The notes under the pieces were generated by a model. It saw only the letters and a program-made list of their open reading frames with translations, had not been told where the DNA came from and did not search any database. The translations under genes were made by a program, and so were the position numbers. From a virus (taxonomy: Duplodnaviria > Heunggongvirae > Uroviricota > Caudoviricetes): a DNA stretch of 38,235 nucleotides. The DNA lies in IMG/VR virus record IMGVR_UViG_2563366949_000011. One strand, given 5' to 3'. Below, in pieces: positions 214 to 22,147 of the stretch; position 1 is the stretch's first letter, and each line of letters opens with the position of its first letter.

Positions 214-3159
214 TTAGTGCTTCCCTTCTATTAAGTCTAACCTAGCTTTTATTCTTTCTATTTCTCTGCGCTGCCATGCTGCCTCGATATAGAATAAGAG
301 ATCAGGTCTGACCCCCCATCTAGATCCTGCTGGCGTTATTTCAACGCGCTCAATGATGTCTTCCATTACCATCACTGGATTATCATCCTCATCAACAATG
401 ATGCTCCCGTCATTATCAGTCAGCGGCATTTCCCTTTGGCCAGTAATGACGTCATCATATACTGCGGGATAATCGTCATAGCAAAGAAAGGCATAGCGGC
501 ATGTTGTGCTTTCTTCTTCCATGAGTCCGTGAGAAATAAGAACATCACGAAGTTGCTGCGCGATTACACCATGATGTATCCTCGCCCCTTCTTCCCCCTT
601 TATAGCGACAGCGTTCAGCCATTTATAAGCGATATACCTGACGTCACCCCAGGCATCCAGCAATGTTTCGTCAGGAGAGACCGGCTCTGTCTTTAATGTT
701 CCGTCACTGGTAACCACAGGATTGGAGCCAAGATAAACTATCGAGAACCTGTTTCCCGGACCACCAAGAGCATTTACATTATCAAGATAAGGTTTAACAT
801 CTCCGTTCTCAAAAAGATGTTCGAGTGCGTTATATACCGCGCGACGTGGAGTACTGCTTCTGGAACCATGCAACGTTATCATTGCACCATCTGCTGAAGA
901 CGTTGTTTCACCGCCGCTAACGATTAATCTCTGAGCGGTAACATCATCAGACGGTACTTTCTTCGCAATAATGGCGTAATTACCCTCAAGTTTGACTTCC
1001 GCGCGAACTTGTCCTGATGTACCTGCATGGACAGTCAGTGACTGGACGGCAACATCATCTGTGAAATCAACGGGTACAGGAACCGTCCTCACGCCTGACG
1101 TCGACATAAAAGTAGGAAGCGTTCTGTTAGGAGTGGCTCCGTAGACAAAATCCCTTGAAACAAATTCTTCCTGTTTAATTTTCACCCTGAAACAATACAA
1201 ATCAGCCGGGTGACCATCGTGAACATAAGGATATTTTCTGTTGTTATCCCCTATGCTCCATGGGTTTAGAAAGTCTTCCCCACCGAAAATGTAGTACAGC
1301 CAGTTGTCTTTGATACAAACTGAACCAACACCAACCGCAGAGTTAACTATTCCGCCCTGATAAATCTGATCAGTAACATTAACCCACTCTACATTATCCA
1401 GACTCCACTCATTGACGTTAACTCTGGTCATAAATGTTCTTGGATAGTTTCCTGCATAACGGTTATCAGGTTCTCCTCCTTCCCACTCACCAAATGCGCG
1501 CTCACTGCCAAAAATAATCAGCTCATCGCCAACTTTGGCAAAAGGAAGGTTTGAGTGATGAACATTATTTGGGAAGCGAAGAGAATTCCATGATGTACCT
1601 AAATCAGAGCTTCTGTGCAATGAACTACCGGGTTGAGTACTTAATGTCCCCCTGGTCGTCAGATACAGAATGCCATCATAATATTTTACACATGGCTCAG
1701 ATGCATTCGCCTCATATTCTGCAGGTATGCGTCTGCGAACAAAGCTACCAGGAGAACCGAAAGCATCAGAGAAATAGAGTATCCCAAGCTCGCGTGGACC
1801 AATATCACCATTATGGTAGCCAACAGCAAAACTGTTATCGCTAATCGTCGCAAAACTGTGAATCTCAGTAACAGGAGTGCTTCCGTCAACAAAAGAAGGA
1901 ATAGTTCCAAGACTGGTTTTTCTCCATGGTGACGAGTGAAATGATGTACCAAAACTCCAGTATCTACCCTCGTTATTCTGATCCACATCCTGGGTATTTT
2001 GCGTCGTAACTGTAAAAGTATTTTTATCAATAACAGTAGTCACCGTCATATTCCCGGTAACACCTGTAACACCAGAGTTTGAGAAGTTGACAAAATCACC
2101 AGCAAATAATCCGTGATCAGTAATGCGAATATAAGCGACTTGCTGATTTGCTGCTTTCGTTATACCACCATAAACGCGAAGGCTGCGACTCATTGGGCGA
2201 TCCCACAACTCTGCAACCTGCAGTTTATTTCCGCTCACGGTCCGCGTCTCAATTACAGCAAAAAGGCGATTTCTGACAACCCCCATACTCATGCAGTGAT
2301 AGTTAACTGTGGGATAGTTTTCATGTAAATCTGTAAGCCATTCCGGCGTTGTCCAGGTCTTCCCGTCATCTCCTGAGCGAACCCATGCAACATGGAGGTT
2401 ATTTACACCATGGCGGTCTCCAGCCATAAAAGGCGCATAGATGACATTGTCATATACAAACGTTTTATCCTGCGTCCAGGCGTTGTACCACGGTGTATCT
2501 GTAATTTTAAATAACTCTCCCTGGATAAAATCTTCAGAAACATAAAAAAGAGGCTGACCCGGTATTCTCTCAAATAAAAAACGAGCATTTTTAAATCGAC
2601 TGACATCTGGAAGAGTTGATACTTTAAAAGTAAGCCCTCGCCCATCTATCTTTTCACCACCTGTTGCAACAGAAAGTAATTCTGATAGAGCTGATGTATC
2701 ATCATGAACACCATCACCAATAGCCCCCCAACCTCTTACATCATAACTGTCTCTCCATCTTGCTATCTGAAGTTTTGGGTATTTATTCGCTCCATCTGTG
2801 TCTTCTAATTGCTGCCGTAACTGATCAGGATCATACTTCAGCACATTAGGAAAATAGAACTGCTGCGCACCATACGCATCATAAACAGCCATAGAATGGC
2901 CTTGCACGGTAACGAATTTGGCAATCTGTCCGTTATATACCGGATATCCAGCAGCGTTAATGATTATTGGTTGCGAAACAGGAACGTGAGAACCGTCTTC
3001 ATTCTCCACATAGACCTGAATCTGGTTTTCAGGATTTACCGGGTCAGTGTCAATTTTACCGATATAAATTTTGCCATTGGCTACGGCTTTAAAAGAACGC
3101 GCCATAGTGAAGAGTTGCGAAGGCATCGATACAATCACATTGGCTGTAATGTCTGTCAT
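214..3159 (-). CDS. Tailspike: P22-type head-binding N-terminal domain fused to an endosialidase (endo-N-acetylneuraminidase) body and a C-terminal intramolecular chaperone domain
   Basis: 981 aa ORF with ATG and GGAG RBS. N-terminus [17 protein letters not shown]...[14 protein letters not shown] resembles the P22 gp9 head-binding domain. Asp-box motifs SGDDGKTW and SSDLGTSW are typical of sialidase beta-propellers. C-terminal TSDGTLKT (Ser...Lys) and acidic tail resemble the self-cleaving chaperone domain of K1F/CUS-3 endosialidases. Confidence 0.9.
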
Positions 3160-3259: not shown

Positions 3260-4162
3260 TCAGTAATTATGTACTGAAGGAGGTAATTCTTTATTCTTAA
3301 GTCTCATCCATGCGGAAAGATTCGTTGGTCCGTCTGGCTCATTGATATCAACATCTCGTGTGTGATTGATTAAAACGTCTCTCGCCATATCGATAATACG
3401 GGAGAACTCATAACCGCAGTCATGACATCTGCCGGAATAGTTCGATTGAATTTGTTTTAGCGCCGGATACAGTTCGCGGAATAATGCCTGTGAGCGGTTG
3501 GCATAATCCCATAGCCATACAAGGCTGTTTGCTTCTTTTGCAGAAAGCTCGTTGGTTTTCTTCTCTTGTTTGCCGATGAACTCACCTTCAAGCACTACCC
3601 TGTGGATGTACTCTACTGCTTGTGGTATCTGAGATGCATCAAGCTCTTCAATACTTTCCACATTGAAACGCTGATGAATCATTGCATAAGCTTCTGGGTA
3701 CATTAGATGCTTTTTGCTGACTAGCATATTTACAGCATCACGAAGCGGAGTCCTGTCATCAACAGATGTTTTCTTCCGTGCATTTGCTGCCTCTCCCTTT
3801 GTCCAGTAGTCATGCAGCACAGTAAAGCATTCTTCCTGGTACTGAATCAGTTTATCGCGGATGTCAGCACGAACTTTCTCAGGGTTGATGCTGAACAGCC
3901 ATCCATTTAACTTCTTCAAAGGAAGGCAGAGTAGCTTACGAAGCTTACCATCAGCGGCAACCATGTTCATATGAACACAGTTGAATTTGCTAATCTGCTT
4001 CATGAGTTTTGTTTGCTGCGTTGACCAGCTCATTCCGAGGTTTTCAACGATTGGCTTCATCGCAACATATGCAACTCCGGCAGCCATGGCGGTGATAATT
4101 TGCTGACCGTTGAATGGCACGTAAGAGGTGTTCACTGCTTCTAAAATTGCTATACTATTCAT
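3260..4162 (-). CDS. ant: Antirepressor Ant (P22 immI type)
   Basis: Protein from the ATG at 4162 ([21 protein letters not shown]...) is 300 aa and matches my recollection of P22 Ant. The ORF-track start at 4228 is a GTG without RBS; the ATG at 4162 has GGAGAA upstream. Sits in the arc-ant-tailspike arrangement. Confidence 0.75.
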
Positions 4163-4394
4163 GTTGGTTTTTCTCCACGGATTTACCGACAACCGAAGCC
4201 CTGACTGTTCCAGCAGTTGGGGCTTCACTGTTTTGATTTCTTTGCCGCATCAAGCATCACTTCTGAAAACGTGCGCTTGCCACTGAATACTCTTTCTCTT
4301 CTCAATTTTTCGTTCGTGCCAAATGATTCGCCATGAACAAAATTTGGTCTTAAAATGGTAATCGCAATCTCTTTGACTACTGCATCCAAGCGAA

Positions 4395-4547
4395 TCACAC
4401 CGTTACCCCCTCTCTCTTCAGGCTGTCTATCAGGCGCTTGATAACCTCTGAGTTAAACGACCTGCACTCTTCCTTTGCCCTGCTACCGATAGCATCCTTT
4501 AACGACTGCGGCATCCTTACCAAAATCTTACTTATTTCTTTCTCCAT
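4395..4547 (-). CDS. arc: Arc-like ribbon-helix-helix repressor
   Basis: 50 aa from ATG 4547 with GGAGGG RBS: MEKEISKILVRMPQSLKDAIGSRAKEECRSFNSEVIKRLIDSL. The RSxNSE motif is typical of Arc/MetJ RHH proteins. Located upstream of ant, divergent from mnt. Confidence 0.65.
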   Translation of the reverse strand: MEKEISKILVRMPQSLKDAIGSRAKEECRSFNSEVIKRLIDSLKREGVTV

Positions 4548-4661
4548 GTTACCCTCCACGCAAACAACTCTTTTCGAATACAAAAGATAGCAAAGTGAGT
4601 ATATCTAGTCAAAATTTTTTTGCATACACTTTGCTATCAAATTGAATACCAAAGGTGTTAT
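4548..4661. promoter_or_regulatory. Divergent arc-ant / mnt promoter-operator region with a 12-bp inverted repeat pair
   Basis: GATAGCAAAGTG at 4586-4597 and its exact reverse complement CACTTTGCTATC at 4627-4638 lie in the AT-rich spacer between divergent RHH repressor genes. Confidence 0.45.
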
Positions 4662-4910
4662 ATGGCAAAGGGTGTGTCAATTTCTCCAACTACGGTAAGA
4701 ATCCCTGAATCTTTACGCGAGGCTCTTGCTGTCAGAGCATCAAAAAATGGTCGCTCTGTTAACTCCGAGATCGTCATGATTTTGCAAGCCGCGATTGATG
4801 AAGATAGGTCGCCAAAGTCAGTTGAGTCATTTGCTCAGCAAGAAGCTGATAAATTCAAAGAGGCGCTACTTGAGACGCTAAAGACCATGTATGCTAAGGA
4901 TGAAAAATAA
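4662..4910 (+). CDS. mnt: Mnt-like ribbon-helix-helix repressor
   Basis: 82 aa from ATG 4662: MAKGVSISPTTVRIPESLREALAVRASKNGRSVNSEI...KFKEALLETLKTMYAKDEK. The RHH motif and coiled-coil C-terminus resemble P22 Mnt. Divergent from arc. Confidence 0.7.
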   Translation: MAKGVSISPTTVRIPESLREALAVRASKNGRSVNSEIVMILQAAIDEDRSPKSVESFAQQEADKFKEALLETLKTMYAKDEK

Positions 4911-5446
4911 TGCTGCACACAATTCATTTCTTATGCCCTGTTAACACTGCCACTGTTGGGCAACTTCAGAACCACTGTCTCACCGCATTATCTCAAGGCG
5001 CAACTGAATTAAATATCCATATATCAAGTCAGGGAGGGGAAACTGCTGCTGGCTTTACTGCGTATAACTTTCTTAAGTCACTCCCTGTTACCGTTAGAAC
5101 TCACAACATAAGCAATGTTGAATCCATAGCTAATATCGTTTTCCTGGCTGGCTCAGAACGTTTCGCAAACCCATTATCAAGATTCCTGTTACATCCTCTA
5201 TTATGGTGCTTTGCCTCCCCAGCCGCCGACCATGCCAGATTGAGAGAGTACGGGAAATGCCTCGATAACGATCTTGATCGCTTCGTTGAGACGTTCAATA
5301 TCGACATCGGAACCCATATTAGGTGGGCATCCCTGATAGCAGACTCGACCATTTTGGATGCTAACAAGGCTCTTGAGCATGGCATAATTAATTCCATAAA
5401 AACTGCAAGGCTGGCATCCAATCAGGCAAACTGGTGGGTTGTTTGA
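4910..5446 (+). CDS. ClpP-like serine peptidase (Clp/crotonase fold), translationally coupled to mnt
   Basis: 178 aa; start ATG overlaps the mnt stop (TAATG). Motifs IHISSQGGETAAGFTAYNFLKS, a Ser in NVESIANIVFLAGS and a His in FLLHP align by eye with the ClpP pattern (INSPGG...AASMG...MIHQP). Confidence 0.55.
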   Translation: MLHTIHFLCPVNTATVGQLQNHCLTALSQGATELNIHISSQGGETAAGFTAYNFLKSLPVTVRTHNISNVESIANIVFLAGSERFANPLSRFLLHPLLWCFASPAADHARLREYGKCLDNDLDRFVETFNIDIGTHIRWASLIADSTILDANKALEHGIINSIKTARLASNQANWWVV

Positions 5447-5469
5447 TGGGTAAATCATGATTACTCCTT

Positions 5470-5494
5470 ATAAAAAACCCACCTGACGGTGGGT
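5470..5494 (-). terminator. Rho-independent terminator at the convergence point (mainly minus-strand sense)
   Basis: Hairpin ACCCACC-TGAC-GGTGGGT at 5477-5494 with an A-run at 5471-5476 on the + strand (U-run for the minus transcript). It abuts the stop codon of the YafO-like gene. Confidence 0.5.
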
Positions 5495-5944
5495 TTAGTC
5501 AAACATAGTGTTTCTAAAGTCTCTCGCATACCCTGCTAACACTCTCATTCTATTATGATTGTTAGCAGACATGTGAGCTACAGGATGAAAAAGAGCAATC
5601 AATGAATACCTGTTCTCATCAAAAAGATTTTGTGCATAAACGAGAGCGGTATTGGATGTTTTATGCCACTGCAACTTTTGCGGTGTGCTGATATCTGTGC
5701 CATTTTTTATTGGCTCAAATTTATTTTCACCAATTGCTAAATGAAGGTGCATAAGGCCTGCATCTTCAATATCAGGAGGTCGATGATAAGAGGTGTCTCT
5801 GCCAAAATAGCTGGGCAACGTTCCCGTAGACTTGTAGATGATAAAATCATCTACAAGTGTTTGTTTTAAATCAGGAAACTCAACAAAAACCGGGGAGAAA
5901 AAATAGTCAAAACTATCCTGATTATATTCCACGGTTACTTGCAT
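5495..5944 (-). CDS. YafO-like toxin domain protein (putative ribosome-dependent mRNA interferase family)
   Basis: 149 aa, ATG with GAGGT RBS. Segments DDFIIYKSTGTLPSYFGRD, LMHLHLA, ALVYAQNLFDE, LIALFHPVAH and NNHNRM align by eye with E. coli YafO (DFISYKRDGVLPDIFGRD, HIHLA, LVYCQGAFDE, NNQMH), recalled from memory. Confidence 0.55.
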   Translation of the reverse strand: MQVTVEYNQDSFDYFFSPVFVEFPDLKQTLVDDFIIYKSTGTLPSYFGRDTSYHRPPDIEDAGLMHLHLAIGENKFEPIKNGTDISTPQKLQWHKTSNTALVYAQNLFDENRYSLIALFHPVAHMSANNHNRMRVLAGYARDFRNTMFD

Positions 5945-5952
5945 GTTTTACC

Positions 5953-6519
5953 TCAGTGGAAGTTACCAGAGTGAAACACACGAGTCCCGTGCTCAGCAAG
6001 CGCACGCAAACCAGCCATATCTACGGAACTATCAAAAACAACCGGAACACATGAGCGTTGTTTAATAAGACTATTCAGGTTGGTTACGGCAGATCTGGCA
6101 TCAGCAACAACGATATAGATATCTCTTGCGATCTCTTTAAAATCAGCAGAAGCTTCTTTGAATACCGATTTCATTGCCCCTTCAAGTCCTCTCAATTGAT
6201 GCTCTATCAATCGAGACTTTTCTGGTTCAATGATAGACAACACATTGTCTACATTCTCATCGGTAGCGTTTGCAAGAACACGATAAGCGTATTTCAGCAT
6301 TCGAGACAATTCTTTAATCGAAGACACCGCCTCATGAAGCTCATCATTAGCCCGTTCACTGCTGAATGAGGATTGATGGTAAGCGTGCTGAACGTTATCA
6401 GTAACAACCACCTCACAACTGAACGCAGAAGCTTGCTGTAATAGCAAACCTATTGCGACTCCAGCTTTGGCAGCGTTCAAGCTAAACATTTCATCAATCC
6501 CATTAGTCTCATTGCTCAT
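5953..6519 (-). CDS. Hypothetical protein (188 aa), immediately upstream of and co-oriented with the YafO-like gene
   Basis: ATG at 6519 preceded by AAGGAGG. Stop lies 8 nt before the YafO-like start. No family recognised by eye. Region is AT-rich relative to the structural genes. Confidence 0.55.
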   Translation of the reverse strand: MSNETNGIDEMFSLNAAKAGVAIGLLLQQASAFSCEVVVTDNVQHAYHQSSFSSERANDELHEAVSSIKELSRMLKYAYRVLANATDENVDNVLSIIEPEKSRLIEHQLRGLEGAMKSVFKEASADFKEIARDIYIVVADARSAVTNLNSLIKQRSCVPVVFDSSVDMAGLRALAEHGTRVFHSGNFH

Positions 6520-6694
6520 ACAAACCTCCTTCTTATCGGAGATTATCAATAGCTATGCATCCATTGAATACACGCTATGCGCAATAAGTTTACGTCACGT
6601 GATATCATTATGCAACCACCGTTCTATCACCGACTAACTTTACTCCCACTCCTATACATCATCTGGTATCCTGCGCAAAACTAAGGAGGTTGGT

Positions 6695-7045
6695 GTGAAT
6701 GCTCAGTCTGTCATCATGGTTTTCCTTGGGCTGATTGTCGCAAAACTATATCCAGACTGGTGGAAAGGGGCATTAGCTACTGTCGCCATCTATTTGCTTT
6801 TATCCATCGTTAAGCGATCACTCGCTGAGACCGTAAATCAAGCAAAACGTTTCTCATTTAAGAGTTTAATAAACTATGTTACTGGGCTTATTTTTTGCCT
6901 TTCAATTCTGATCGCTTCGGCTTTTTTGCCCGTATCAATAGCTAATTTTTTTGGCGCACCATATGAGGTAGGTTATCTATTCTCTGTTTCCTGTCTTGCC
7001 ATTGCTCTTCTTTACCTGTGGACGAGATCAAAGAATAAAAATTAG
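6695..7045 (+). CDS. Small integral membrane protein (116 aa, about three hydrophobic helices), position equivalent to P22 sieA
   Basis: GTG start with AAGGAGG 5 nt upstream. Hydrophobic segments VIMVFLGLIVA, ALATVAIYLLLSIV and LIFCLSILIASAFLPV. Plus strand, convergent with the ejection-protein operon. Confidence 0.5.
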   Translation: MNAQSVIMVFLGLIVAKLYPDWWKGALATVAIYLLLSIVKRSLAETVNQAKRFSFKSLINYVTGLIFCLSILIASAFLPVSIANFFGAPYEVGYLFSVSCLAIALLYLWTRSKNKN

Positions 7046-7062: not shown

Positions 7063-9078
7063 TTATTGAGCTTCTTTTTGTGATGCCTGTGCGACTCTGG
7101 TTAGCGATTGTGTGACCGTACTGATCGCTATGTCATATGCTGTGCTACCTTTTGGCGTATTTGCCAGACGTAACAAGGCATTTCGTATAACAGGGCTTTC
7201 GTATGCCTTCGCAGCTCCTCCTACGACACCAGCAGCAGGAACAACAAACGCAGCCGTTTTTAGCATCCCCGCTAATACTGCTGCGTTTATGATGCCACCA
7301 CCAACTAACAATCCATAAAGCTGCTGACCATTTAAGTTTTGAACGTTCGCTTTTGCCGCGTGTCTTGTATCGTTGAGGTATTTAATAACGCCGTCCAGTT
7401 CCTTTCCATGTACGCCTTTAAAGAAAGTTGCTGATTGCTTCCTGTTCCGGTGTAACGCATTAATAAACTTTTCAACACTAATATTTCCAGACGGATCAGT
7501 CGCCTTATCTACAGCATTCTGAACTATGGCTGCTCGTGCGTTTTGCCTACCATTGTCATCCAGAAGCCTGTAAAGCTGAGAACGTTCTGATGGGTTTTGG
7601 CTAAAAACGAGTTTTGTTACATCCTCAGGTGTAGCCTTGCCGCTGGCTATTGCCTTTTGAACGCGCGTTCTTCCCATCATGTCATTGAATCTAGCCCATG
7701 AGCGATCAACCCTAGACATATTGGCAGCTTCTTCTGAGCCTAGTTTTTGGGATACTGCTTTTTTCATATCCGCTGTATATGCCTTGTAGACAATATCGCT
7801 GGCTTTCTGGAGCGTGTCTTTATCAACAGTCTCGTTTGAATTCATGAACCGCTTTCGAAGGTCAGTTCTGTTTTCTCTCGCCAGACGCAGGTCATTGGGT
7901 CCGCTGGTGATATCGTCTTTAAATTGCTGCAAGACTTTTACCGCGGCTCTATCCTGAGATTTGCCCGGGCGGCTTAACACGGCAATCTGATTGTCGATAG
8001 CTTTTACCGTGTTTGAGAGATCGACAGGGGTATCCCCCATAGCGTCAATTATGCGGTTATATCGCTTTCCTGCTGCCTCAATGAATTTTTGTTGCCCTTT
8101 AGTCGCAGATTCATAAAGCTGTTTATCAGAAATGCCACCCAGACCATCGCTAAATGTTCTGACTAAATTTTCTCGTGCTTGTTGTTGATTCAGCCGATTC
8201 TTACCGGTTCCAAAAAAAGGAACTCTTTCGCCTAATGTCTGAGCCTGACTCTGCATAAAGGTTTTATCTTTCAGCGTGTCACTGGTCATTAACGGCAGGT
8301 TTCTTTCCGACGCAAAATCGACAGCAGCCTTTGCTTCCGGTGACATCTCACCGCGAACAGCCCTGGAAACCGCACTAACTGTATTTTCCAGCCCCTTGCC
8401 AACACCACCAATGCCAGCAGAAATTACCGTTTGTGCAGGATCAATATCTTCTCCGCCAGCAAGGCTGGTGCCACCCTGTAGTGCTAAATCTGTAGCAGCT
8501 GATTTCCCTATGGCACCAAGCACCGTTCCAGCCCTGCCCGCTGGTGTGAACGCTAACGCATTAGCAAGAAACGAAGTCAGGTCTTGCGGTGATAAACCTG
8601 GCTTGTTCAGGGCATAATCACCGGATGGCAGGGAAACGATAGTGTTACCCTTCTCATCCTGCCTTAATTTCGCCCCCATACTCTGAAGAATCTTTTCCTG
8701 AGACGCGTCGGAGCCGAAAAGTTGAGACCATCCAGCCTTCAGGGCATCCATGCTTAGTGAGTTCAACTCAGGGGCAGCCCCAACATTTTGCAGTCTCTCC
8801 ATTTCTGGTGTCATTCGGCTTTCACCGGTAACGGCATCGCGCATTGCAGCACCTAAAACAGCCCCTTGCTCAGCAGAGCGATCTAGTCCTTCCTTCTGCT
8901 GAGTGGCAAGCTGTGCATATCCTGATGCAAGTGAGTTGTCTGCTGGCGATTGCTGAACACCTTGTTGTGTTGGCGCTGACTGACCAGCAAAATACTCATC
9001 AATGGCGGACCCAATATCTTCCGTGCTCGTACCATCAGGAAAGGTAAATGTCTTACCATTTGCAGTTACTTTCATCAT
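7063..9078 (-). CDS. Ejection (injection) protein, P22 gp16-like
   Basis: 671 aa ORF at the position and orientation of P22 gene 16, last gene of the head/ejection operon. Confidence 0.75.
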
Positions 9079-21661: not shown

Positions 21662-22147
21662 TTATTTCAGTTCGTTACCAGGCATTTCTTTTAGCTCTTT
21701 CAAATGACAACGATTGAGACTAAACCACTCCCCGTGCGACCTATAGTTGTAATATTTTTGGTGCAATTTGGTTTCAAGCTCTCTATCGGCCGGAATCTTT
21801 GCAATTAGATTTAGCTTCCCACCACTCATGCGAGATATCTCTGAAATTCGTTTATTAACCCTGCGACTAAACCCTATTTTTGTTAGCCCACTATCTTCAG
21901 CATGCAGAACGTACACATATGATTTTTGCGAAGCACTGGGTGCGACTTTGTTGTAATTAATCATGTCAAACATGAAGCCTTGCTTTAGCAAAGTTTCAAA
22001 AAAGATAGAATTAACACACCCATTCCTTCTCAGCTCTGCACTTAGCTTGTCAATTTCCTCTATGATGTCGCCAGACCCCTTTCCACTTATAAGAAAATCT
22101 TGGTACATGCGACCAATTCTTGAGGTAATTTCAACAAAGTTGTTCAT
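21662..22147 (-). CDS. T5orf172 (GIY-YIG-like) domain protein, moron between the lysis cassette and the terminase module
   Basis: 161 aa; C-terminal half YVYVLHAEDSGLTKIGFSRRVNKRISEI...LHQKYYNYRSHGEWFSL fits the T5orf172 signature (VYIL...KIG.T...EWF). Region is visibly AT-rich. Confidence 0.6.
   Translation of the reverse strand: MNNFVEITSRIGRMYQDFLISGKGSGDIIEEIDKLSAELRRNGCVNSIFFETLLKQGFMFDMINYNKVAPSASQKSYVYVLHAEDSGLTKIGFSRRVNKRISEISRMSGGKLNLIAKIPADRELETKLHQKYYNYRSHGEWFSLNRCHLKELKEMPGNELK

Follow-up and report, generated by a model that had tools for sequence, protein, structure and literature searches.

The window analysed here, a stretch of 38,235 nucleotides (nt) held in IMG/VR as record IMGVR_UViG_2563366949_000011, is the complete genome of a P22-like E. 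coli prophage (Lederbergvirus) of the CUS-3 type. Its immI region carries, directly after the gene of the Mnt maintenance repressor, an open reading frame (ORF) of 178 amino acids (aa) at positions 4910-5446 on the plus strand. Our preferred reading, to which we give about an even chance of being right, is that this gene encodes an accessory subunit of the ClpP family, of the 'short ClpP' type, which travels as prophage cargo and acts through the Clp machinery of the host. The initial annotation of this locus, made from the letters of the sequence, had proposed a serine peptidase with a Clp-protease fold that is translationally coupled to an Mnt-like repressor.

The 178-aa protein belongs to a coherent short ClpP family, the type of which is ClpP1 of Pseudomonas plecoglossicida (PpClpP1). 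Against CLP_protease of Pfam (PF00574) it scores 44.4 bits (gathering score 20.2; E 2.2e-11) over residues 24-165, with the match starting at profile position 37. Peptidase_S49, which covers SppA and the lambda gpC-type prohead protease, is absent among the Pfam matches at E≤1, and in NCBIfam the protein stays far under every cut-off of the ClpP models and of the ClpP-related head-protease models. Its AlphaFold2 (AF2) model is of high quality (predicted local distance difference test, pLDDT, 92.2; predicted template modelling score, pTM, 0.88), and the best match that Foldseek returns for it in the PDB is 9uxt_A, the PpClpP1 structure, with a template modelling (TM) score of 0.91, a root-mean-square deviation of 2.0 Å and 38% identity. 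The ClpP proteins of E. coli, S. aureus and Listeria are matched at TM 0.78-0.81 and probability 1.00 with 19-24% identity, and Listeria ClpP1/2 are among the top structural matches. A profile of the family finds the 9UXT sequence over the full length at E 2.1e-51. A database search returned 68 close relatives of 178-200 aa from Enterobacterales and Chromobacterium, and a profile built from 27 relatives retrieved 234 cluster representatives at E≤1e-30 from 1.84 billion proteins, the best 150 of them being nearly all 180-200 aa long. The start codon is backed by homologues that open with the same MLHT[IV]HF, and the ratio of non-synonymous to synonymous substitution rates (dN/dS) against the Pectobacterium orthologue is 0.075; the gene is thus under strong purifying selection and is a real gene, not a chance ORF.

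The Clp-protease fold of the initial annotation is therefore upheld by the Pfam score, the AF2 model and the match to 9uxt_A, and the catalytic serine and histidine that it had picked out were well chosen. They are Ser72 (in NVESIANI; codon 5123-5125) and His95 (in FLLHP; codon 5192-5194), both invariant across 27 homologues together with Gly42, Gly43, Glu113, Asp121 and Arg124, and both aligned with Ser97 and His122 of E. coli ClpP, in a residue mapping made by alignment onto the E. coli protein, whose sequence was verified against the PDB. That annotation had named two findings that would refute its proposal, namely a crotonase-fold protein lacking a Ser/His dyad and homologues that are always head proteases of rearranged structural modules; the dyad is present, and the homologues have other settings (see below). 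Three further features lie beyond what it had noticed. The position of E. coli ClpP Asp171, the third member of the triad, is Ser145 here and Ser or Ala throughout the clade. The N-terminal axial gating loops are absent, the protein beginning at the equivalent of E. coli ClpP residue ~26, so that the first ~25 residues of mature ClpP are gone. Most of the pocket in which the unfoldase docks is lost as well: the IGF/LGF-loop pocket of E. coli ClpP for ClpX and ClpA (the acyldepsipeptide, ADEP, pocket), which we take to comprise Y60, Y62, F82, I90, M92, F112 and L114, corresponds here to N35, H37, S57, H65, I67, F85 and N87, polar at five of the seven positions. The protein also carries a C-terminal NWWV tail that is extra with respect to E. 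coli ClpP and is conserved. Compared with canonical E. coli ClpP (peptidase family S14), then, the fold (TM 0.78-0.80) and the spacing from His to the Asp-equivalent position, handle stretch included (50 residues as against 49), are alike, whereas sequence identity is only ~20%.

The solved relative comes with published biochemistry, which likewise lies beyond the initial annotation. The protein of 9UXT, ClpP1 of P. plecoglossicida, has 183 aa, a truncated N-terminus and the residues Ser73-His96-Pro151, and forms a homotetradecamer by analytical ultracentrifugation and cryo-electron microscopy with an axial pore of 42.7 Å (PMC12900304). Its catalytic (peptidase) efficiency is 13-fold below that of the canonical ClpP2; changing Ser or His to Ala abolishes activity, while a change of the Pro causes only partial loss (PMC12900304). 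PpClpP1 did not bind ClpX in pull-downs, and alone it degraded neither casein nor the ssrA-tagged green fluorescent protein, GFP-ssrA (PMC12900304). Together with canonical ClpP2 it forms a stable hetero-tetradecamer that is more active and binds ClpX, and a mutant deleted for PpClpP1 is defective in growth and motility (PMC12900304). The window protein resembles PpClpP1 in length (178 and 183 aa), in its N-terminal truncation, in the positions of Ser and His, in the non-acidic residue at the Asp position and in its Trp-containing C-terminal tail, and differs from it at the third position, which is Pro151 in the one and Ser145 (Ser or Ala in the enterobacterial clade) in the other. The working model is that of the two-paralogue systems of M. 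tuberculosis (ClpP1P2), L. monocytogenes (ClpP1/2) and P. aeruginosa (ClpP1/ClpP2), where a divergent weak ring joins a canonical ring and the unfoldase sits on only one face (PMC12900304). Those systems are chromosomal and co-evolved, whereas here a mobile prophage would bring the second ring to whichever ClpP its host makes.

By likeness to PpClpP1, short ClpP of the window is probably a double-ring barrel of seven-fold symmetry, open at the pore and weak as a peptidase, and this homo-barrel is probably unable to dock an unfoldase. Its ring probably pairs ring-to-ring with host ClpP; in the mixed barrel the host ring would still let ClpX or ClpA feed in substrates, and in the lysogen host Clp proteolysis would thereby be shifted in activity or in cleavage profile. 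The same features could be read in the opposite sense, as those of a poison subunit whose co-assembly with host ClpP lowers ClpXP/ClpAP activity and thereby stabilises proteins of the prophage or the host that ClpXP otherwise removes: a ClpP ring without unfoldase pocket, gate or Asp, with the low intrinsic activity seen in PpClpP1, would leave one face of the mixed barrel unable to bind an unfoldase. We consider this unlikely. The peptidase activity of the PpClpP1P2 heterocomplex exceeds that of either homo-oligomer and is slightly higher still with ClpX (PMC12900304), and the strict conservation of Ser72 and His95 argues for catalysis, not for mere blocking.

ClpP-related proteins of phages are otherwise encountered as head-maturation proteases, and some matches of the window protein lie in that direction: the best hit in PHROGs, a collection that has no curated threshold, is phrog_94, 'head maturation protease' (7.3e-21), Clp_rel_HeadMat of NCBIfam (NF045542) gives 49.3 bits, and the GenBank record of phage phiv205-1 annotates the gene under this function. 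That the gene is a displaced or remnant enzyme of this kind is nonetheless extremely improbable. The NCBIfam cut-off is 120 bits; heads of the P22 type are built on a scaffold that is recycled, and require no protease; the head module of the window runs portal-scaffold-coat without one; the prophages examined have no homologue in a head module; and the best viral structure matches, at just 14-25% identity, have no more than the generic fold in common with it. Likenesses to the proteases of NF045542 and PHROG 94 are confined to domain size, the missing N-terminal gating loops and a resemblance at the level of profiles, and the 178-aa protein differs from them in having no attached scaffold or capsid domain. 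With the cut-off missed, a non-structural location and a phage type that needs no such enzyme, the head-maturation protease is effectively refuted, in agreement with the initial annotation, which had set the gene apart from the structural module.

The layout of the region, from the tailspike gene to the gene of the gp16-like ejection protein, is as follows.

214-3159, minus strand: tailspike gene
3260-4228, minus strand: ant
4225-4398, minus strand: 57-aa ORF
4395-4583, minus strand: arc
4662-4910, plus strand: mnt, first cistron, 82-aa ribbon-helix-helix (RHH) maintenance repressor
4896-4912, plus strand: translational-coupling junction, sequence read directly
4910-5446, plus strand: short ClpP gene (178-aa ORF), second cistron
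5475-5496, no strand assigned: hairpin, RNA fold
5495-5944, minus strand: YafO-like toxin gene
5953-6549, minus strand: 198-aa ORF
6695-7045, plus strand: 116-aa membrane ORF
7063-9078, minus strand: gp16-like ejection protein gene

In the mnt operon short ClpP is the second cistron; it is coupled to mnt in translation, and a terminator hairpin comes after it. At the junction with mnt (GCTAAGGATGAAAAATAATGCTG) the pentamer TAATG, at 4908-4912, combines the mnt stop codon TAA (4908-4910) with the ATG of the 178-aa ORF (4910-4912), just as the initial annotation had described, and a Shine-Dalgarno sequence AAGGA lies within the 3' end of mnt at 4896-4900, 9 bases 5' of the short ClpP ATG. The junction is the same save one base in phiv205-1 and in the lambda-like phage PhiR12_1, and in Pectobacterium the overlap of mnt and the short ClpP gene is also 1 nt. 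The partner that had been called Mnt-like can be taken as a genuine Mnt orthologue: the 82-aa product matches Arc of Pfam at 9.5e-11 and aligns end to end with P22 Mnt at 36% identity, the C-terminal tetramerisation region included. RefSeq names the identical mnt gene 'Arc family DNA-binding protein'. The G+C-rich hairpin at 5475-5496, AAACCCACC-TGAC-GGTGGGTTT, folds at -23.1 kcal/mol (z = -3.8), and the same 42 bases carry the annotation 'terminator' in Salmonella phage Emek; it ends the mnt/short ClpP transcript and, with a run of six U on the opposite strand, also the convergent yafO-like gene. The terminator came from folding, and a simple promoter and terminator scan gave counts no higher than in shuffled sequence. 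The arc-mnt intergenic region (4584-4661) contains divergent promoter-like sites, the one on the minus strand being TTGACT-17-TATCTT at 4612-4584. These sites are flanked by the two halves, 29 nt apart, of a perfect inverted repeat of 12 nt (GATAGCAAAGTG, 4586-4597; CACTTTGCTATC, 4627-4638), which we infer to be candidate Arc/Mnt operators of this immI specificity. The corresponding region of P22 is annotated with the same layout, with overlapping Pant/Pmnt and Oarc/Omnt. Across the stretch of the inverted repeat the PhiR12_1 sequence differs.

P22 also offers the closest comparison for the operon as a whole. Its mnt transcript covers mnt plus orf59a and runs to an annotated terminator, after which comes sieA, with its own promoter, beside gene 16. 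Both phages thus have the order mnt, small second cistron, terminator and variable slot beside gene 16, and they differ in that P22 has the 59-aa orf59a where the window has the protease, and in that the sieA slot holds unrelated genes here. Mnt is made in P22 lysogens, where it keeps ant off. Since Mnt is made in lysogens, the protease encoded with it would be made there too, and expression of short ClpP in lysogens is, on this analogy, likely. In another P22-like prophage of E. coli, 'Gally' of strain LF82, mnt is strongly induced in macrophages, where few prophage genes are transcribed as strongly (PMC9928086). The primers used for the Gally mnt deletion do not match the window, and Gally is not among the six phage records that have the short ClpP gene, so that the Gally data support no more than the general statement that prophages transcribe their mnt operons.

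An RHH gene that overlaps the start of a downstream gene is the usual layout of a type II toxin-antitoxin pair, and the RHH gene of the window overlaps the short ClpP gene in just this manner, which could make the RHH protein an antitoxin and the ClpP-like protein its toxin. We rejected this candidate, the probability of which we put close to nil. As a full-length Mnt orthologue the RHH protein has a known job of its own, most members of the family have no partner gene, and phage E212 has the short ClpP gene without mnt. Moreover, the PpClpP1 that was purified had been expressed by itself in E. coli (PMC12900304).

Among 5,426 complete E. coli genomes, 128 (~2.4%) carry the short ClpP gene at ≥95% identity, always on the chromosome; the carriers include the type strain of the species, K1 meningitis isolates and avian pathogenic strains. 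In E. coli ATCC 11775 a near relative of the window's prophage, situated at the argW tRNA gene, has a 100% identical copy. An Arc-family (mnt) gene adjoins the short ClpP gene in 38 of the 40 E. coli rows listed, the other two being truncated matches. A tblastn search at 1e-8 found short ClpP in only six of 50,697 phage genomes, with ≥95% identity and all at the same non-structural spot, and three of these six records are lambda-like siphoviruses (PhiR12). In PhiR12_1, the one examined of these three, the complete ant-arc-mnt-protease cassette (4606-6665) lies between the lambda-type tail genes L and K of the siphovirus, and the immI-type antirepressor module therefore moves as a unit between podoviruses and siphoviruses. 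The DNA of the window, PhiR12_1 and phiv205-1 was also aligned: a block of ~98% identity extends from ~4834, in the 3' third of mnt, to ~5497, just past the hairpin, the flanks are unrelated, and in the N-terminal half, which binds DNA, the Mnt of PhiR12 is different. What moves is therefore a unit of the mnt 3' end, the protease gene and the terminator. In phage E212 (4516-5033) an IstB-like fragment of the IS21 family has replaced mnt, arc and the 5' part of ant, of which a 65-aa C-terminal stub of Ant remains; the protease gene is intact. Insertion sequence (IS) elements also lie between ant and the tailspike gene in ATCC 11775 and phiv205-1, and this region thus attracts IS insertions.

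Prophages of other genera hold the gene in the following settings (identity to the window protein).

Pectobacterium, 80% identity: coupled to mnt in a P22-like immI
Leclercia, 75% identity: alone, in the lysis cassette/terminase interval
Serratia, 72% identity: alone, in the lysis cassette/terminase interval
Klebsiella (four different prophages), 57% identity: alone, in the lysis cassette/terminase interval
Rahnella, 53% identity: alone, in the lysis cassette/terminase interval
Proteus, 54% identity: between N and the erf/ssb early-left genes
Chromobacterium and Pantoea, 44-58% identity: inside tail modules

In every one of these other-genera copies the short ClpP gene is antiparallel to the phage genes on both sides, and the short ClpP genes of Enterobacterales are always prophage-borne in the settings examined. 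Neither an RHH gene nor an ant gene was found beside the homologues of Leclercia, Serratia, Klebsiella, Proteus, Pantoea, Rahnella and Chromobacterium. The conserved unit is thus the short ClpP gene itself, not its pair with mnt. This bears on the suggestion, made in the initial annotation, that the protease could process a regulator such as Ant or Arc. A protease specific to immI, which by cleaving Ant, Arc or another immI regulator would stabilise lysogeny, draws on the tight coupled linkage to mnt in those 38 E. coli rows, in phiv205-1 and in Pectobacterium, and on the persistence of this linkage in a lambda-like phage whose Mnt differs in its DNA-binding half. We find it very unlikely all the same, because the homologues at 52-75% identity sit as solitary genes in other prophage slots, and since distant members of the family are chromosomal (Pseudomonas, Massilia), E212 keeps the gene after losing mnt, arc and most of ant to the IS21-family element, and P22 runs its immI without short ClpP, with orf59a in its place.

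Outside prophages, the members of Pseudomonas, Azotobacter and Stutzerimonas (~40% identity) are chromosomal and stand alone, with small stress-type genes (KGG, CsbD, metallothionein) nearby in three of four lineages, and those of Massilia and Telluria adjoin genes of purine catabolism; on plasmids there was just one good homologue. The PpClpP1-type genes thus stand among small stress-protein genes of the chromosome, while the gene of the window is prophage cargo within an mnt operon. The neighbours in Pseudomonas and Azotobacter also include DUF2934; taken together, such neighbours hint at a stress or stationary-phase regulon that the structural paper left undiscussed. The slots of the prophage copies, which elsewhere hold genes for lysogenic conversion and exclusion, would suit an anti-phage role, and the stress-gene neighbours of the chromosomal relatives point equally to a role in proteostasis or fitness. 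For the lysogen the benefit could be fitness under stress or in virulence, or interference with incoming phages.

An anti-phage role would not necessarily pass through the host Clp system. A gate-less, wide-pore barrel could act without any unfoldase as a stand-alone exclusion or defence effector and degrade unfolded or natively disordered proteins of incoming phages, such as ejection proteins that arrive unfolded, or early proteins; it would then be a single-gene protease of superinfection exclusion or anti-phage defence. The position of the gene would suit such a task, as it lies in the mnt transcript beside a variable slot that holds sieA in P22 and the YafO-like toxin cassette here, and other prophages keep it in classic lysogenic-conversion slots, antiparallel to the flanking phage genes; so would the absent N-terminal gate and the wide pore of PpClpP1. 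On balance this is rather unlikely. The protease matched no model of PADLOC-DB 2.0 at E≤0.1, and a scan of it with its four neighbours gave nothing meaningful; the literature, searched for ClpP-like genes of prophages or of defence, yielded no paper that connects such a protein with defence; PpClpP1 alone left both casein and GFP-ssrA undegraded (PMC12900304); and the chromosomal relatives have stress and metabolic genes as neighbours and are found outside defence islands.

Several points weigh against an accessory subunit that works through host ClpP as well. We infer the oligomeric state of short ClpP, its hetero-assembly with E. coli ClpP and its expression in lysogens, and the promoter that would drive the mnt operon is assigned by likeness to P22 only. 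Identity to PpClpP1 is just 38-40%, and the third 'triad' residue is Ser or Ala, not Pro. PpClpP1 is chromosomal and has a co-evolved canonical ClpP as its partner, whereas a phage copy that hops between genera must pair with different host ClpPs. The E. coli-like copies, at ≥80% identity, are attached to mnt, and in the sub-clade of E. coli and Pectobacterium an additional use linked to immI is conceivable. Finally, no role is assigned to the conserved NWWV tail at the C-terminus.

The remaining genes of the region deserve a short description. The 981-aa tailspike combines a P22-type head-binding domain with a full endosialidase (End_N_terminal, beta-propeller, beta-barrel and tail-spike domains) and an S74 chaperone, a set of domains that marks a K1-capsule-specific, CUS-3-like phage. 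The 57-aa ORF at 4225-4398 (minus strand) lies between arc and ant with a 4-base overlap with each; it has no match in Pfam, is hypothetical in RefSeq, and takes the place of the sar antisense RNA region of P22. A two-gene cassette (5495-6549, minus strand) fills the variable slot that separates gene 16 from the mnt operon. One gene encodes a 149-aa homologue of the YafO toxin family (Pfam YafO_toxin, 3.4e-22; under the cut-off in NCBIfam), and the protein encoded directly 5' of it, 188-198 aa long, matches phrog_8416 (2.6e-96) and is not YafN-like; it may serve a YafO-type toxin as a new antitoxin or other partner, or the two could be a defence pair. E212 has a different gene pair in this slot. 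A link of the protease to the YafO-like toxin was considered and rejected, since phiv205-1, PhiR12 and E212 have the protease with other downstream genes. The predicted 116-aa membrane protein (6695-7045, plus strand) adjoins gene 16 in antiparallel orientation, exactly at the position of sieA in P22; it has no family match and no detectable similarity to P22 SieA, and is a candidate for an alternative exclusion protein. Between the lysis and terminase genes of the window, in the slot that short ClpP occupies in other prophages, lies a gene for a 161-aa T5orf172/MUG113-domain protein (21662-22147, minus strand).

As to annotation, RefSeq labels the short ClpP genes as an ordinary 'ATP-dependent Clp protease proteolytic subunit'. 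This generic name is acceptable; the 'head maturation protease' label of phiv205-1 is wrong. The literature on phiv205-1 deals with whole-prophage phenotypes only, our literature searches found no paper on the prophage class of short ClpP genes, and the structural paper on PpClpP1 makes no mention of prophages (PMC12900304). What is known, then, is the fold and the family; not yet described are the prophage setting, the mobile module of mnt 3' end, protease and terminator, and a possible retuning of the Clp proteolysis of the host. From the prophage clade it is evident that the short ClpP family is mobile, a point that the structural paper did not consider. There is also a low probability that the ClpP ring without gate or Asp is disseminated by the temperate phages of Enterobacterales as a tool or weapon made in lysogens, which redirects ClpXP/ClpAP against superinfecting phages or alone degrades their unfolded ejection or early proteins; if true, this would be a protease-based, single-gene mechanism of exclusion or defence that is absent from current defence catalogues. 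ClpXP and ClpAP control the stability of many regulators of phages and hosts, such as lambda O, the Mu repressor, P1 Phd and RpoS, and a ClpP ring supplied by a prophage would be a simple way to retune these host proteases in lysogens.

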